From NCBI GenBank assembly GCA_036497825.1, contig DASXIT010000134.1:17936-81935 (forward strand): a stretch of DNA of 64,000 nucleotides. Direction: 5' to 3'. The translations under genes were made by a program, and so were the position numbers. Origin of the DNA: Candidatus Acidiferrum sp. (GTDB lineage: Bacteria; Acidobacteriota; Terriglobia; Acidiferrales; UBA7541). Under the pieces are notes generated by a model. It saw only the letters and a list, made by a program, of their open reading frames with translations, was not told the origin of the DNA and did not search any database. This document shows, in pieces, positions 3,480 to 9,115 of the stretch. Every line of letters starts with the position of its first letter. Within the stretch, counting starts at the first letter, position 1.

Positions 3480-4573
3480 AGAAGGCAATCCAACCCAAAC
3501 TATTGTCCGCCCGGCATGAGAAAGAGTTCTCACACCTTCGCGATTTATCCGCGCGAATCGGAAACGATCCTCTCCTGGTACAAGCCAGCAACGGGAATAC
3601 CTCCATCAAACTCGGTGGAATTCTTTGGATTAAGGCCACCGGCAAATTGCTTGCCGATGCCGCCGAATCCGACATTTTTGTGCCCCTGGATTTGGGTGAA
3701 ATCAGAGCGTCGATTCGCCGCGAATCAGAAATCACGGCCCGTCACGCTCTCGAAGGTGAGTTGCGTCCGTCTATTGAAACCGCTATGCACTCGGTTCTTC
3801 GCCATCGCGTGGTTATTCATGTCCACTCCATCAACGCCATCGCCTGGGCAATTCGGATGGATGGGGCTGAATTGCTGAATGAACGGCTCTCTGGCTTACA
3901 TTGGCGCTGGATTCCCTACGCTGCATCCGGCATACCGCTTGCCCAGGAAATCGAAAAAGCCGTGGCTATTGCGCCGGAAACCGACGTTTTCATACTCGGG
4001 AATCACGGATTGGTCGTTTGCGGCCATGATTGCCGGGCCGCGGAAAAGCTTTTGAACAAGGTGGAGCATCGGCTGGCGATTGCTCCCAGGCACGTTCCTG
4101 CGCCCGACGATGCAGCACTTGCCATGATGGCGCGGTTCTCAAGTTGGCGATTTCCCGATGACGATTTGTTTCACGCCCCGGGTATAGATGCCATCTCTCG
4201 AGAAATTGTCAAAGGTGGTGTTCTTTATCCGTGCCAGGCGATTTTCTTAGGCCAGAATTTCCCCCTGCTTCCGCCGACAGTTTCCGCTTCAAATTTCCCG
4301 GAAGAATTACCCCGGGAAGACAGCGCTTGTTCCTTTATATCCATCGAAAAATGCGGAACGATGTTCAACGAAAAGATGACAACCGCAGAACGCGCCACTC
4401 TAATGGGCCTCATCCAAGTAACGCTGCGCACCGAACGATCCACCCGCCTGCGTTTCTTAAATTGCGCCGAAGTAAGAAACGTACTGACTGATGGCGCCAA
4501 TAGCTACAAATCGGAAGTCGTAAGTCTGAAGAAAACGGAAATGCCAATCGCGGTTTCCGTCCCCTCCGAATAA
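3476..4573 (+). CDS. Class II aldolase/adducin family protein
   Basis: GNTSIK, PSIETAMH, HVH and NHG metal-binding motifs. GTGA overlap with the radical SAM stop. Confidence 0.85.
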   Translation: MKKAIQPKLLSARHEKEFSHLRDLSARIGNDPLLVQASNGNTSIKLGGILWIKATGKLLADAAESDIFVPLDLGEIRASIRRESEITARHALEGELRPSIETAMHSVLRHRVVIHVHSINAIAWAIRMDGAELLNERLSGLHWRWIPYAASGIPLAQEIEKAVAIAPETDVFILGNHGLVVCGHDCRAAEKLLNKVEHRLAIAPRHVPAPDDAALAMMARFSSWRFPDDDLFHAPGIDAISREIVKGGVLYPCQAIFLGQNFPLLPPTVSASNFPEELPREDSACSFISIEKCGTMFNEKMTTAERATLMGLIQVTLRTERSTRLRFLNCAEVRNVLTDGANSYKSEVVSLKKTEMPIAVSVPSE

Positions 4574-4653
4574 TTTCGGCCCCACTCGCTCCAGTAGCAG
4601 GCATGAGCGGCATCTTGAATGCAATGTAGAAGAAAATTGAATGCATGCGACTA

Positions 4654-4682
4654 TTGCGGCCGACGCCACCTCTCGGTACACT
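4654..4682 (+). promoter_or_regulatory. sigma70-type promoter of the cys leader/operon
   Basis: TTGCGG (4654-4659), 17-nt spacer, TACACT (4677-4682). Predicted +1 at about 4689-4690. Confidence 0.6.
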
Positions 4683-4689
4683 TTGGAAC

Positions 4690-4785
4690 ATGTCATTGGG
4701 CTTTCGGAAATGCCGGATGGTTGCGTCGACCTGTTGTCGGTGTCGCGCATTTGTGTCTTCTGGCACCGGGAGGCTAGTGATCTAA
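4690..4785 (+). CDS. Putative leaderless Cys-rich leader peptide (31 aa, [31 protein letters not shown])
   Basis: ATG coincides with the predicted TSS. Four Cys codons, three of them in TGT TGT CGG TGT (4732-4743). Lies just before a terminator upstream of cysD. Too short for the ORF track. Confidence 0.6.
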
Positions 4786-4813
4786 AGCTCTAATTCTAGC
4801 CAAGCAGTTATTG

Positions 4814-4856
4814 AACCCACCGCCAGAGGTGAATTGGCAGGTGGGTTTTTTGTTTT
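4814..4856 (+). terminator. Intrinsic terminator/attenuator in the cysD leader
   Basis: AACCCACC-GCCA (4814-4825) pairs with TGGC-A-GGTGGGTT (4835-4847), followed by a T-rich tract, about 30 nt before the cysD ATG. Confidence 0.8.
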
Positions 4857-4888
4857 TATACCAGCATTTCGAACAAGAGGACAGACCA

Positions 4889-5866
4889 ATGGCAAGTGTG
4901 CCGCAAGAATTGTTCAGCACAACAGAACCTCGCAGTGGACAAGATCTGGCGATTCAGCCTCGGGTTGGCTCACGGTTAAGTCACCTGAAGGCTCTCGAGG
5001 CAGAAAGCATCTACATCCTCCGAGAGGCAGCAGCGGAGTTTTCGCGGCCAGTCATGCTCTATTCCATCGGGAAAGATTCCTCTGTGATGCTTCGTCTGGC
5101 CCAGAAAGCTTTTTTCCCCGGAAGGATTCCCTTCCCCCTCCTCCACGTAGACACGAGTTACAAATTCCCCGAAATGATTGCATTTCGCGATGAGTATCCA
5201 AAGCAGATCGGAGCGGAGTTGCTGGTCCACAAGAATCAGGAGGCGCTGGACGCTGGCGCCAATCCATTTGCGTTTGGCACACAAAAATGTTGTGGCTTGC
5301 TAAAAACGAAATCACTTCTTGATGCATTGGCGGAAGGCGAATTCAACGCAGCTTTCGGGGGAGCGCGGCGGGACGAAGAGAAGTCACGCGCAAAAGAAAG
5401 GATCTACTCCCTTCGTGATGTCCATGGACAGTGGGATCCCAAGAACCAACGGCCTGAGCTCTGGAATATCTTCAACTCGAAAATCGACAGAGGCGAAAGC
5501 ATTCGCATCTTCCCAATTTCAAATTGGACGGAACTCGACGTCTGGCTGTACATCTACACCGAAAGTATTCCGATTGTGCCGCTCTACTTCGCAAGAGAGC
5601 GCCAAGCGGTAGTGCGTGACGGCTCAATCGTTCTGATTTATCCCAACGACCAACTTCGACCAGGAGAGAAGCCTCAGTTGATCAAGTGCCGCATGCGATC
5701 GCTCGGTTGCGTGCCGTGCACGGGGGCAATCCGGTCGGACGCAGACACAGTTCCCAAGATCATCGAGGAGATGATTTCGTTCCGCAGGTCCGAGCGTGAA
5801 AATCGCGCGATCGATCATGACGAGGAAGGATCAATGGAAATCAAGAAACGCGAGGGCTATTTCTGA
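4889..5866 (+). CDS. cysD: Sulfate adenylyltransferase subunit 2
   Basis: [50 protein letters not shown] at 4889 follows an AAGAGG RBS; the track's TTG 4811 start runs through the terminator. Confidence 0.96.
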
Positions 5867-7605
5867 TGACCACTGTGACCGACGCAGAGATTCGGAGTGG
5901 GTTCGCGGAGTTCCTTGACCAAAACCTCAACAAGGAGCTTCTGCGATTTACTACTGCCGGAAGCGTGGATGACGGCAAGTCCACGCTGATCGGCCGGCTG
6001 CTGCACGACTCCAAAACCATATACGAAGATCAACTCACCTCCGTGAAGAAGAGCCGCATCAATCGTTCCAGCGGACCGATCGATTTTTCGTTGATCACCG
6101 ACGGGCTGCGCGCGGAGCGTGAGCAAGGCATCACCATCGACGTCGGATACCGCTACTTCACAACTGCACAGCGAAAATTCATCATCGCCGACACGCCTGG
6201 GCATGAGCAGTACACCAGAAATATGGCCACCGGCGCATCTACAGCCGACTTAGCGGTGATTTTGATTGATGGGACAAAAGGCCTGCTTCCCCAGACCCTG
6301 CGACATACCTACATCTCATCGCTTCTGGGAATATCAACCCTCGTTGCTGCAGTTAACAAGATGGACTTGCTGGAGTATCAAGAGCACAACTTCCGGAAAC
6401 TCGAGAAAGATTTTCTTGCGCTTGCGGAACAGTTGGGCGTCCAAGCGGTGCGTTGCATTCCCATCAGCGCGCTCGCGGGAGACAACGTTGTCGAGCGCAG
6501 TAAAAACATGCCGTGGTACCCCGGCCCAGCCCTGCTCGAACACTTGGAGCGCGTGCCGATTGCGCGGCCCGCAAGCACACTCGGTGTCAGATTCCCTGTT
6601 CAGTATGTCCTTCGTCCAGACGCCAACTTCCGCGGTTTCGCCGGGCAAGTGGCCGGCGGAGTAATCCGTCCGGGCGACGCCGTTACCGCCCTTCCCTCTG
6701 GCCAAAAATCGCGCGTGGATTCGATCGTCACTTACGATGGCCCGCTCGCGGAAGCGTCCTCTCCAATGTCGGTCACGCTGACACTGGAAGATGAAATCGA
6801 CCTGAGCCGGGGCGACATGCTCGTCTCTTCCACAAATCCGCCACACGTCTCTCAACAATTTCTTGCGACGGTTGTCTGGATGCACGCGCAACCACTCGAA
6901 ATCGGACGCCCCTATCTGATCAAACAATGCGCGCGTCAGGTACGAGGTAGAGCTACGGCGATTCGACAACGCGTGAACATTGACACGCTTGAACCGGAGG
7001 CCGCCGAACGCCTCCAGATGAATGATATTGCGGCCGTCACATTCGAAACCAGCAACCCACTTTTCTTTGACGCCTATCAACGCAATCGGACCACAGGAAG
7101 TTTCATCGTCATCGACCCTCTGACGAATGCAACTCTGGCAGCGGGAATGATTCGAGAAGATCTCTCGCACACTGAGGGGAATTTAAGCGGGAAAGAGATT
7201 CTGCCGCCGCACTCTGCGATTACTCCCCTTGAGCGGCAGCGTCGGCATGGGCACTACGCCGCGATCATCTTGGCCGACGGGCGCGCGTCGCTTGCAAACC
7301 GGCTCGAGCGCGCGCTCTTTGAAGAAGGATTTGAAGTCATGGCCGTCGATGAACATTCTTCGTTCTCTTCTGAGAAAAACGCGTGGACCGCACTACACGC
7401 CGCAGGATTCGTCGTCATCTACCAGAATCCATCGCTTGGAGTGGAAGAGCGGCTGGAATTGAGAAGCCTGGCTGGCGATCGCTTCTTCGATCTCGAAACG
7501 TTAGCGTTGCCCGTGAACGATGTGGACGCTGTGCAACACGTGCTGGCTTTAGTCGAGCCACTCCGCATTCCGCGGCAGACGGAGAAATTGAGAGGGGTGA
7601 ACTGA
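5866..7605 (+). CDS. cysN: Sulfate adenylyltransferase subunit 1 (GTPase) with degenerate C-terminal APS-kinase-like remnant
   Basis: GSVDDGKSTLIGRLL, REQGITIDV, DTPGHEQY, NKMD. The C-terminal extension resembles the start of CysC but lacks GxSGxGKST. Confidence 0.93.
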   Translation: MTTVTDAEIRSGFAEFLDQNLNKELLRFTTAGSVDDGKSTLIGRLLHDSKTIYEDQLTSVKKSRINRSSGPIDFSLITDGLRAEREQGITIDVGYRYFTTAQRKFIIADTPGHEQYTRNMATGASTADLAVILIDGTKGLLPQTLRHTYISSLLGISTLVAAVNKMDLLEYQEHNFRKLEKDFLALAEQLGVQAVRCIPISALAGDNVVERSKNMPWYPGPALLEHLERVPIARPASTLGVRFPVQYVLRPDANFRGFAGQVAGGVIRPGDAVTALPSGQKSRVDSIVTYDGPLAEASSPMSVTLTLEDEIDLSRGDMLVSSTNPPHVSQQFLATVVWMHAQPLEIGRPYLIKQCARQVRGRATAIRQRVNIDTLEPEAAERLQMNDIAAVTFETSNPLFFDAYQRNRTTGSFIVIDPLTNATLAAGMIREDLSHTEGNLSGKEILPPHSAITPLERQRRHGHYAAIILADGRASLANRLERALFEEGFEVMAVDEHSSFSSEKNAWTALHAAGFVVIYQNPSLGVEERLELRSLAGDRFFDLETLALPVNDVDAVQHVLALVEPLRIPRQTEKLRGVN

Positions 7606-7607
7606 AA

Positions 7608-8306
7608 ATGGGATCAACACTCGCCGCCGAAACGCTCGACAACCTGAAACCGGACGAGGTTCTCAGCGCTGTACTGAGCGCGCATTCTGGCCAGAACACT
7701 TGCCTGACATGCAGTTTCCAAGCCGAAGACATGATCGTCCTCGACCTTGTTCGCCAACGCATTCCTTCAATACCCGTTCTATTCCTCGAGACCGGTTATC
7801 ACTTTCCCCAGACGTATGAATACCGCGACCGCGTGGCGAAGGAATGGTCTCTGAACCTAGTAAATGTGATTCCGCGAAATACCGTGGAACAACAGAAATT
7901 GGAATTGGGGATTTTGTACCGAACCGACCCGACGCGATGCTGCCAACTCCGCAAAGTCGATCCGCTATTGCAAGCGTTGCAACCTTACGAGATTTGGTTC
8001 ACGGGATTGCGCCGCGAGCAATCGCCCACGCGGAAGAATCTTAAGAAGGTCGAAGAACATCGATTGCCAACCGGGAAAACACTTTTGAAAGTGAGCCTCC
8101 TTGCCGATTGGACATGGGGCCAAGTGTGGGAGTACACGGCCAAAAATCACCTTAGCTATTTGCCGCAGTACGACCAGGGTTATTTAAGCATTGGCTGCGA
8201 ACCATGCACGGCGGTTCCTGATGACCCGGCCAACCCTCGTTCGGGCCGCTGGGGTGGCAAGAAATTGGAATGCGGAATCCACACATTTTCCCAAGGCGGG
8301 CAATAA
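7608..8306 (+). CDS. cysH: APS/PAPS reductase, 4Fe-4S (APS reductase) type
   Basis: CCQLRKV, TGLRREQS, SIGCEPCT, RSGRW, ECGIH. ATG at 7608 just after the cysN stop. Confidence 0.92.
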   Translation: MGSTLAAETLDNLKPDEVLSAVLSAHSGQNTCLTCSFQAEDMIVLDLVRQRIPSIPVLFLETGYHFPQTYEYRDRVAKEWSLNLVNVIPRNTVEQQKLELGILYRTDPTRCCQLRKVDPLLQALQPYEIWFTGLRREQSPTRKNLKKVEEHRLPTGKTLLKVSLLADWTWGQVWEYTAKNHLSYLPQYDQGYLSIGCEPCTAVPDDPANPRSGRWGGKKLECGIHTFSQGGQ

Positions 8307-9115
8307 TGCATTACTTCGTAGGCTTCCTCATTGCCCTGGCAGTGGGATTGACCGGAGTCGGTGGCGGAAGTTTTACCGTTCCAGCGCTCGTACTTCTCGC
8401 TGGGTTGACAGCGGGAGAAGCCGTCGGCACCGCCTTCTTGTTTGCGGGAGTACTGCGGTTGATCGCTGCTCCTTTCTATCTCGCGGGAAAACACATTCAC
8501 TCTCGCTACCTGCGGCTGCTGTTGCAAGGAGCGGTGCCAGGACTTTTGGTCGGCACGTGGGCCCTCAGATTGTTAAATCGTGACGCGGGCAATCCGGTCG
8601 TAATTCTGCTCCTTGGCGTTATCCTGGCGGCGTCCTCTAGCGTCACCTTTATCCGGCGTATTCAAAATCCCGCGTTTGCGGCCAAGAACCATCGCTGGCT
8701 TCCCTGGCTCGCTCTGCCAATTGGCGTCGAATCAGGATTTTCATCTGCAGGTGCTGGAGCGCTGGGAACTGTTTTACTGCTGAACTATTCCGAAATGACG
8801 CCCACGCAGGTTGTGGGAACGGATTTACTCTTCGGATTGGTATTGGCGACGATTGGCAGCGTCTTTCACTGGAGCGTTGGCTCTGTCAGCCTTCCGATAC
8901 TTTCTCAACTTCTCCTCGGCGGCGTTCCCGGAGTCGTGCTCGGTTGCTTACTGGCTCCGAAAGTTCCTGCAAACAAATTGCGAACAGCTGTTGCCATGTT
9001 GGCTATCCTTGCGGGACTTCAGCTGGTCTGGAGTGGTGGCCACAAACTCGCTCAGAGGCACGCGACGAGCGTAGCCAAAGTCGAAGCGCACGCTGGAGTT
9101 GTCGATGCGCACTAA
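8306..9115 (+). CDS. TauE/SafE family membrane protein (sulfite exporter-like)
   Basis: GLTGVGGGS, SSAGAGALG and VVGTDL motifs with multiple TM helices. TAATG overlap with cysH. Confidence 0.85.
   Translation: MHYFVGFLIALAVGLTGVGGGSFTVPALVLLAGLTAGEAVGTAFLFAGVLRLIAAPFYLAGKHIHSRYLRLLLQGAVPGLLVGTWALRLLNRDAGNPVVILLLGVILAASSSVTFIRRIQNPAFAAKNHRWLPWLALPIGVESGFSSAGAGALGTVLLLNYSEMTPTQVVGTDLLFGLVLATIGSVFHWSVGSVSLPILSQLLLGGVPGVVLGCLLAPKVPANKLRTAVAMLAILAGLQLVWSGGHKLAQRHATSVAKVEAHAGVVDAH

Follow-up and report, generated by a model that had tools for sequence, protein, structure and literature searches.

A putative cysteine-sensing transcription attenuator with a leaderless poly-cysteine leader upstream of the cysD-cysN-cysH-tauE operon of Candidatus Acidiferrum

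The 64-kb stretch of Candidatus Acidiferrum sp. DNA analysed here (the window, to which all coordinates refer; its contig, C134, belongs to a 234-contig, 5.0-Mb assembly) carries a set of sulfate assimilation genes in the order cysD-cysN-cysH-tauE. Directly upstream of cysD lies a leader which is most probably (we put the probability at roughly 85%) a classical attenuator of the leader-peptide type, controlling transcription of this operon by sensing charged tRNA-Cys. The leader contains an open reading frame (ORF) of 31 codons, whose ATG (4690-4692) stands 7 nucleotides (nt) past the -10 box of a TTGCGG-17-TACACT promoter and which encodes a CCRC cluster; with an extra TGC codon at 4711-4713 this small ORF (sORF) comprises four Cys codons in total. 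It is followed by the stem of a predicted intrinsic terminator, AACCCACCGCCAG / UUGGC(A)GGUGGGUU, with one bulged A, a 9-nt loop and a folding energy of -19.3 kcal/mol, which leads into a 12-nt U-run (U6GU5) and ends 32 nt upstream of the cysD ATG. An earlier note on this DNA, made from the sequence alone, had described the promoter, the sORF with its Cys cluster and a strong terminator between sORF and cysD, and all of these are present where it had placed them; the cysD ATG lies at 4889 and not at 4890 (Table 1).

Taken alone the leader is only suggestive, because scans with general models are empty. A cmscan search of 4000-5500 at E <= 10 gave no match to the Rfam leader families (Thr_leader, His_leader, Leu_leader, Trp_leader and others) and returned just three chance-level matches, all of them to unrelated small RNAs. 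Likewise, a scan for promoters and terminators of the Escherichia coli consensus found 0 sites at the leader, which we attribute to the thresholds of the scan and do not take as absence. Two other readings of the same stretch were rejected: a longer ORF of 46 codons that would start from an in-frame ATG at 4645, since this ATG lies upstream of the -35 box, and the hairpin as terminator of the upstream aldolase gene (end at 4573), since 240 nt and the conserved promoter separate that gene from the hairpin.

Table 1. Features of the cysD leader and operon in the window, and related leader loci elsewhere (L, G and C numbers are our own handles for loci, genomes and contigs; G000 is the genome of the window)
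Feature	Position	Strand	Basis and remarks
-35 box TTGCGG	4654-4659	+	read from sequence; TTGC kept in relatives
-10 box TACACT	4677-4682	+	read from sequence; 17-nt spacer after the -35 box
Putatively leaderless leader ORF, 31 codons plus TAA (4783-4785)	4690-4785	+	predicted transcription start site (TSS) at A4690 or 1 nt before
Putative regulatory Cys cluster TGT TGT CGG TGT (CCRC)	4732-4743	+	sequence
Region 1, predicted anti-antiterminator 5' strand; partner 4757-4781	4692-4719	+	minimum free energy fold of the naked leader
Region 2, predicted switch strand CUUCUGGCACCGGGAGGCUAGUGAU; core 4757-4770 pairs with region 3, whole stretch with region 1	4757-4781	+	folding, alignment
Hairpin P2, GGCUAG 4772-4777 / CUAGCC 4796-4801; encloses stop 4783-4785, stacks inside the antiterminator	4772-4801	+	folding
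Region 3, terminator 5' arm AACCCACCGCCAG; 4816-4818 and 4822-4829 pair with region 2	4814-4826	+	folding, alignment
Region 4, terminator 3' arm 4834-4847 plus T-run TTTTTTGTTTTT 4846-4857	4834-4857	+	folding, alignment
cysD Shine-Dalgarno (SD) sequence AAGAGGA	4875-4881	+	sequence; 7 nt before ATG 4889, 3' of the terminator
cysD, sulfate adenylyltransferase subunit 2	4889-5866	+	Pfam PAPS_reduct; NCBIfam CysD 447-454 bits, above cut-off
cysN, sulfate adenylyltransferase GTPase subunit, 579 aa	5866-7605	+	NCBIfam CysN equivalog 628.9 bits, cut-off 590
cysH, APS/PAPS reductase; frame open from 7383	7605-8306	+	NCBIfam phosphoadenylyl-sulfate reductase 231.8 bits, cut-off 154
tauE, TauE/SafE-family anion permease	8270-9115	+	Pfam TauE, E = 1e-33
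Own-genome tRNA-Cys leader	L208 (G000:C201) 1383-1631	-
Own-genome tRNA-Cys leader	G000:C63:1286-1643
Third own-genome tRNA-Cys copy	C175:26018-26092		plain promoter
tRNA-Cys-linked leaders of relatives	L210 151-381; L236, L239, L245, L249, L250, L251, L254, L259
Divergent poly-Cys leader before Pro_CA gene	G000:C175 reverse-complement 8113-8935
Thr/Ile-rich leader before asd	L002 1356-1560 (G000:C166:47415-47620)
Terminator platform before asd	L002 1501-1543
His leader	G000:C85:9062-9220
Aromatic leader	G000:C228:3373-3540

The RNA of the leader, numbered with A4690 as position 1, can fold into alternative helices. In the fold of the naked leader the terminator formed by regions 3 and 4 (P = 0.96) stands beside a long anti-antiterminator in which region 1 pairs with region 2 (3-30 / 68-92, P = 0.83), a pairing that the earlier note had missed. 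The antiterminator which that note had proposed, CUUCUGGC (4757-4764, RNA 68-75) with GCCAGAGG (4822-4829, RNA 133-140), is confirmed as a possible helix of 8 bp including one G-U that overlaps the 5' arm of the terminator, and it is extended by the pairing of GGG 79-81 (4768-4770) with CCC 127-129 (4816-4818). Together with hairpin P2 (83-88 / 107-112) the antiterminator is predicted at -22.1 kcal/mol as compared to -19.3 kcal/mol for the terminator.

The same arrangement recurs among relatives, which takes it far beyond chance. The nearest public cysD loci are those of metagenome-assembled genomes (MAGs) labelled Candidatus Acidoferrum/Acidiferrum, Acidoferrales/Acidiferrales, 'Acidobacteria gp2' and Terriglobia, in agreement with the earlier placement of this DNA in the Acidobacteria. 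A Cys-rich sORF followed by a nearly identical terminator precedes cysD in all 15 genomes of the same genus that have cysD, and sORF and terminator precede it in 78 of 80 further cysD loci from named Acidoferrales/Acidiferrales MAGs; of the two exceptions, one has cysD behind another gene and the other shows no leader within 330 nt. In-frame Cys clusters are kept before cysD in these relatives, and promoter, Cys codons, terminator, antiterminator and operon are all as expected from the proposal of the earlier note that the leader is a ribosome-mediated attenuator sensing cysteine, a proposal which the present comparison supports. Among 201 sampled genomes of the class, poly-Cys sORFs in front of cysD occur in the window's own family (f1) and in family f11 only, and none was found before cysD in five further cysD-bearing families. 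The f11 leaders (L025-L029, L042, L057) are leaderless-looking poly-Cys sORFs as well, for example MVVFVNRACCCCRMLPCPCPRCCR, and many of them lack an evident intrinsic terminator, so that attenuation there may be translational or depend on Rho. As several of these f11 genomes are closed, cultivated strains may exist.

Across 79 unique leaders the sORF has a median length of 31 codons (range 25-34), starts with ATG in 54, GTG in 21 and TTG in 4 cases, and ends on TAG or TAA in every case, never on TGA. The stop codon also has a conserved CUAG/CUAA context. Each of the 79 sORFs has 3-8 in-frame Cys codons, and CC or longer runs are found in the relatives examined. TGY triplets are concentrated in the reading frame (418 as against 157 and 62 in the other two frames), and Cys accounts for 17% of leader codons, 20-fold more than the 0.86% in the long ORFs of the window's genome. 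The leader Cys codons are TGT in 76%, as opposed to 26% in this genome, which prefers TGC (74%). Since all three tRNA-Cys genes of the genome have the anticodon GCA, UGU is read by wobble.

The promoter is conserved along with the sORF. The 79 leaders were anchored on a TAnnnT hexamer 5-9 nt before the start codon and the -35 region was not used for their selection. Still, the resulting logo is TTGCag-17-gTAnnnT, with T in 74, T in 65, G in 66 and C in 56 of the 79 leaders at the fixed 17-nt spacing. In 47 leaders the hexamer lies 7 nt from the start codon and in 14 it lies 6 nt away (61/79 at 6-7 nt), which leaves no room for an SD sequence between -10 box and start, and by inspection of the spacers the base preceding the start codon is often a pyrimidine. 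Because of this spacing and this pyrimidine, a +1 on the A or G of the start codon is the natural reading, which implies that the mRNA is leaderless, with a TSS that we infer from the promoter. Leaderless genes have been predicted at 10-19% in Acidobacteria (PMC3160421).

Within the sORF the part that corresponds to region 2 is frozen at synonymous sites: its Ser-Gly pair is written TCT GGC in 28/28 leaders although TCT makes up just 12% of the Ser codons of the genome. Judged by its codons, region 2 is constrained as RNA and not as peptide. The N-terminal half of the sORF varies freely save for complementarity to region 2, and the CCAG(A) motif of region 1 is retained across different reading frames. 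Region 2 also contains a perfect and conserved SD-like GGGAGG (4768-4773), located 6-7 nt upstream of the P site of a ribosome that has the leader stop in its A site; pairing with the anti-SD could hold a terminating ribosome on region 2.

Structure was assessed over 51 aligned leaders of type A. The terminator is paired in 93% of alignment cells and has four pairs that are changed on both sides, a number reached in 0/500 shuffles. The antiterminator is paired in 86%, as compared to 38-47% in slid registers; its covariation score is equalled by 9/500 shuffles, and the 2:3 duplex has a mean energy of -18.3 kcal/mol with all 51 leaders able to form it. Pair 72:136 is mostly U-A, is U.G in five leaders and is C-G in L007 and in the whole type-B subtype (CCCRLQMTA...), and where it is C-G the terminator partner of 136 changes too. 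Column pair 84/170 is C-G in 17, U-A in 11 and U.G in 7 leaders. For a ribosome stalled on the second Cys codon of the cluster, folding was restricted to the RNA on its 3' side and stopped short of the 3' arm of the terminator; at least 8 of the 11 nt of region 3 were then paired with region 2 in 50/51 leaders versus 34% of shuffles. In naked full-length folds, region 2 instead paired with the variable 5' part in 38/51 leaders versus 26% of shuffles. Its 5' partners there differ, being CUUUCGG in the window's leader and GCCUCC, CUCCC, CCUCC or GAGUUUCCU in relatives. A simple 5-bp region 1 (GCCAG alone) was significant in 24/51 leaders only and was given up for the longer 5' strand, which does better. 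We also discarded, as unphysical, folds with a masked ribosome in which pairs were allowed to span the ribosome; these retained the 1:2 helix when the ribosome was stalled and the 2:3 helix when it stood at the stop. Leaders of types B and C scored weakly above shuffles in the automated switch test (0.63 versus 0.49), partly because some terminators were mis-called by the script, and the pairing of type B is, by eye, consistent with the switch.

How would such a leader respond to cysteine? In the mechanism that we propose, transcription would start at the A of the leader ATG and a 70S ribosome would load onto the 5' AUG of the leaderless mRNA. When Cys-tRNA-Cys is scarce the ribosome would stall on UGU UGU CGG UGU (4732-4743) with a Cys codon in its A site, covering about 4714-4756, region 1 included. 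Region 2 (4757-4770), free just past the stalled ribosome, would then capture region 3 (4816-4829) before region 4 is made, P2 would stack within the 2:3 pairing (about -22 kcal/mol together), and with the terminator blocked in this way RNA polymerase would enter cysD. When cysteine is ample, the ribosome would translate across region 2 to the stop codon (4783-4785) inside P2, where it would stand between regions 2 and 3 and melt P2. In the wake of the ribosome, or once this has been released, region 2 would re-pair with region 1 (4692-4719), the 3:4 terminator would form (-19 kcal/mol plus U-run) and transcription would end at about 4857. The earlier note had the ribosome at the stop codon mask region 2. 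This is only partly right, because a ribosome of standard footprint at the stop (about 4765-4797) does cover GGG 4768-4770 but leaves 4757-4764 uncovered.

Several points weigh against this mechanism. Masking does not account for the exclusion of the 2:3 pairing when cysteine is plentiful, which has to be argued on steric and kinetic grounds. The covariation in the antiterminator is modest and resides mostly in one or two positions, because the element is highly conserved, and column pair 84/170 is mispaired in 15/51 leaders. The 1:2 pairing goes undetected in about a quarter of the relatives, and in some relatives the Cys codons abut region 2, where a stalled ribosome would block the antiterminator. 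RNAalifold, when applied to the 51 leaders, recovers the terminator only; since this method cannot show alternative helices, the named structures were counted individually in place of its consensus. By the E. coli consensus TTGCGG/TACACT is a weak promoter, scoring 7/12. Finally, the TSS, the transcript 3' end at the terminator, translation of the sORF, ribosome stalling and read-through that depends on cysteine are all inferred.

What the analysis does establish are the sequence elements, their conservation, their pairing potential and their association with sulfur assimilation genes. Among the other explanations that we considered, the poly-Cys sORF might sense cysteine but have its output in the initiation of cysD translation, as in Ms5788A of mycobacteria, or in the access of Rho, with hairpin and U-run playing a minor or insulating part. 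Mycobacterial poly-Cys leaderless sORFs indeed act via SD sequestration, and as many f11 sORFs in front of cysD lack an obvious terminator, the sORF may predate the terminator platform. However, the GC-rich hairpin of -19 kcal/mol and its 12-nt U-run are nearly invariant in more than 90 loci, the 5' arm of this terminator is the conserved partner of the switch strand, and the cysD SD (4875-4881) lies outside every conserved pairing. Moreover, the element is also found upstream of tRNA genes, where there is no SD that it could act on. An output other than termination is thus decidedly improbable.

Even less probable is a sORF that makes a functional small Cys-rich peptide, for instance a metal- or redox-active one, with a terminator that ends this small gene and a separate promoter for cysDNH. 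Small Cys-rich proteins exist, and the C-terminal motif ..V(S/C)SG.GRL.. appears to be conserved as peptide; yet conservation is at the nucleotide level, as in the frozen TCT GGC, the N-terminal half is free to vary apart from its complementarity to region 2, and subtypes with unrelated peptide tails retain the Cys run and the switch. In addition, the gap of about 30 nt between U-run and cysD ATG leaves no space for a promoter, and the element is found before many different sulfur genes. We attach equally little weight to a riboswitch-like RNA that binds a ligand or a protein, such as a sensor of a sulfur metabolite, and contains the ORF by accident. The element resembles riboswitch expression platforms in its highly conserved primary sequence and its alternative helices, but it has no Rfam match even at E <= 10 and no conserved multi-helix aptamer, the terminator being all that RNAalifold finds, whereas start codon, frame, in-frame Cys clusters of variable number, stop position and promoter-ATG spacing are conserved. 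Nor would an incidental ORF fit with sister attenuators of the same genome that bear His, Thr/Ile or aromatic codon runs before the matching pathways.

The signal assigned to the leader-peptide attenuator can be approached from the genes that follow its other copies. A covariance model (R1), built from 38 leaders and extending from the Cys cluster through the U-run, finds 1-4 copies in 28/61 genomes of the family and matches in 29/41 genomes of the genus. The genes directly behind these matches are cysD, ATP sulfurylase, a ferredoxin-type sulfite reductase, a two-domain rhodanese, tRNA-Cys, a siroheme synthase-like protein, an NMT1-type binding protein, a Porin_5 protein and an O-acetylhomoserine sulfhydrylase-like protein, the last one named from its N-terminal sequence alone. 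In relatives 1-5 copies of the element stand before sat, sulfite reductase, rhodanese and other genes, and the window's genome has copies before cysD and before two tRNA-Cys genes as well as a divergent one before a beta-carbonic-anhydrase-like gene. By the standard comparative argument, the presence of one element in front of functionally linked sulfur genes points to a shared, cysteine-related signal. The divergent leader, MFIRSHSQAPHSTGFCAPVFCCCTCCFAGAWAESSG, has a terminator of its own and precedes a 193-aa protein of the beta-class carbonic anhydrase family (Pfam Pro_CA). Carbonyl sulfide (COS) and carbon disulfide (CS2) hydrolases belong to the beta-carbonic-anhydrase fold, and by analogy this protein could be a sulfur-scavenging enzyme. 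As for the operon itself, a bifunctional CysNC model matches residues 7-496 of CysN only and scores below the cut-off of that model; about 140 additional C-terminal residues follow, in which Pfam and NCBIfam scans detected no APS-kinase domain.

Two of the three tRNA-Cys(GCA) genes of the window's genome lie 45-110 nt behind a poly-Cys leader with a terminator of the same family, the leader peptides being (L)NIHFQTGSMRRGCCPCCCCVRSGGGMLMI and MKSLSPNAGLCCCCSGSVCLTSGEGFPNLE, and the third has a plain promoter. The attenuator also stands directly before tRNA-Cys in at least nine other genomes of the genus (at least ten in total); a BLAST search of relatives with the tRNA-linked leader found nothing, and the covariance model was used instead. 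Our literature search found no published precedent for an amino-acid attenuator that has its own tRNA as output, and control of this kind appears to be undescribed. If true, tRNA supply would here be subject to an unusual kind of feedback, in which the stalling of ribosomes for want of Cys-tRNA-Cys would directly increase transcription of the tRNA that is being sensed.

Leaders of similar build but different coding are found in the same genome: a Thr/Ile-rich one (..VITITATRSTTIKRTTTA..) before asd, a His one (MILRAHRHHHHHGFLPRPCWTA; MILRAHRHHHHHG...) before hisI-hisG-hisD-hisC and an aromatic one (MKFAAYSYWWRFTYRS..; YSYWWRFTY) before DAHP synthase. In each of them a -10 hexamer precedes the ATG by 7-9 nt and an intrinsic terminator is present. 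This genome has just two instances of the terminator platform CCCACCGCCAG..CUGGC.GGUGGG-U run, one upstream of cysD and one upstream of asd, and the asd leader carries the region-2-like CUUCGGGCGACGGGAG. In relatives (L204, L207, L220, L222, L225-L229) the platform is common to Cys leaders, Thr-type leaders (aspartate kinase, asd) and a leader before acetolactate synthase. These similarities suggest that one scaffold has been re-coded for different amino acids. A broader view, which we put forward tentatively and at somewhat less than even odds, is that one modular leaderless scaffold is the main regulator of sulfur assimilation in Acidoferrales/Acidiferrales, a 'Cys ribulon' in place of a CysB-type factor. 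Its outputs would include dedicated extra tRNA-Cys genes, and its terminator platform (CCCACCGCC...GGUGGG-U run) would have been re-coded, by a swap of the codon run, into Thr (asd, aspartate kinase) and branched-chain (acetolactate synthase) attenuators.

Few groups of soil bacteria are as abundant as the Acidobacteriota, yet hardly anything has been learnt of the regulation of their metabolism; in a survey of predicted attenuators almost none of those in this phylum had an assigned function (PMC2965389). The earlier note knew of no such element in Acidobacteria, and our literature searches likewise found no paper that describes one in the phylum. The element offers, for an uncultured order, a concrete mechanism of sulfate assimilation control that can be tested, and would extend leaderless leader-peptide attenuation with intrinsic terminators beyond Actinobacteria and Proteobacteria. 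The covariance model defines a candidate sulfur regulon (cysDN, sat, sulfite reductase, siroheme synthase, rhodanese, transport, tRNA-Cys) and can improve the annotation of MAGs. The mechanism as such is textbook, and the gain lies in breadth and regulon content and not in a new principle.

Attenuators of amino-acid operons are classically represented by trpL, hisL, thrL, leuL, pheL and ilvL of E. coli and Salmonella. The cysD leader resembles these in having, directly upstream of the biosynthetic operon, a short ORF in which codons for the amino acid of the pathway form a run, and four segments with mutually exclusive 1:2, 2:3 and 3:4 helices, in which a stall on region 1 would free region 2. 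It differs in that cysteine is outside the classical set, in that the mRNA is putatively leaderless and the leader ORF has no SD, in its occurrence in Acidobacteriota, and in the lack of sequence similarity to the Rfam leader families. Furthermore, its stop codon lies about 13-26 nt past region 2, inside P2, whereas the classical stop lies just before region 2.

The closest parallel in coding is the mycobacterial 'Cys ribulon' of polycysteine leaderless sORF attenuators (Canestrari et al. 2020, 10.1101/834739 / Mol Microbiol 114:93); an earlier study had already predicted such Cys leader peptides for Actinobacteria (Seliverstov et al. 2005, PMC1262725). Both systems have a leaderless RUG start (from a predicted TSS in our case), two or more consecutive Cys codons and several independent copies per genome before cysteine or sulfur genes. 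Yet Ms5788A exerts translational control by SD sequestration and the Actinobacterial leaders have 'no obvious terminators', whereas here a strong and conserved intrinsic terminator is present and sequestration of the SD is not seen. Different from the mycobacterial leaders, moreover, those described here belong to an unrelated phylum, are dissimilar in sequence and have tRNA-Cys genes among their putative outputs.

A tandem-Cys upstream ORF followed by a terminator is also known from the uORFC-8-2 motif before cysS of Rhodobacterales, for which attenuation by sensing of Cys-tRNA has been proposed (Brewer et al. 2021, PMC8632094). That motif shares with the present one the predicted Cys-codon ORF and the subsequent intrinsic terminator stem with U-run, but it controls cysteinyl-tRNA synthetase in Alphaproteobacteria, carries its two Cys codons at positions 14-15, lacks a description as leaderless and is of other sequence and structure. 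Leaderless leader peptides, in turn, are reported in the accounts of the ilvBNC (and trp/leu) attenuators of Corynebacterium glutamicum (PMC11857589; Neshat et al. 2014 as cited in PMC8079986), which, as presented there, combine them with an anti-antiterminator/antiterminator/terminator model and have a 5' hairpin that involves the start codon region. These attenuators are specific for branched-chain amino acids or Trp, belong to Actinobacteria and bear no sequence relationship to the cysD leader. Taken together, every component of the system has a precedent, and what is new is the phylum, the regulon and the combination of a leaderless start, a poly-Cys sORF, an intrinsic terminator and sulfate assimilation.

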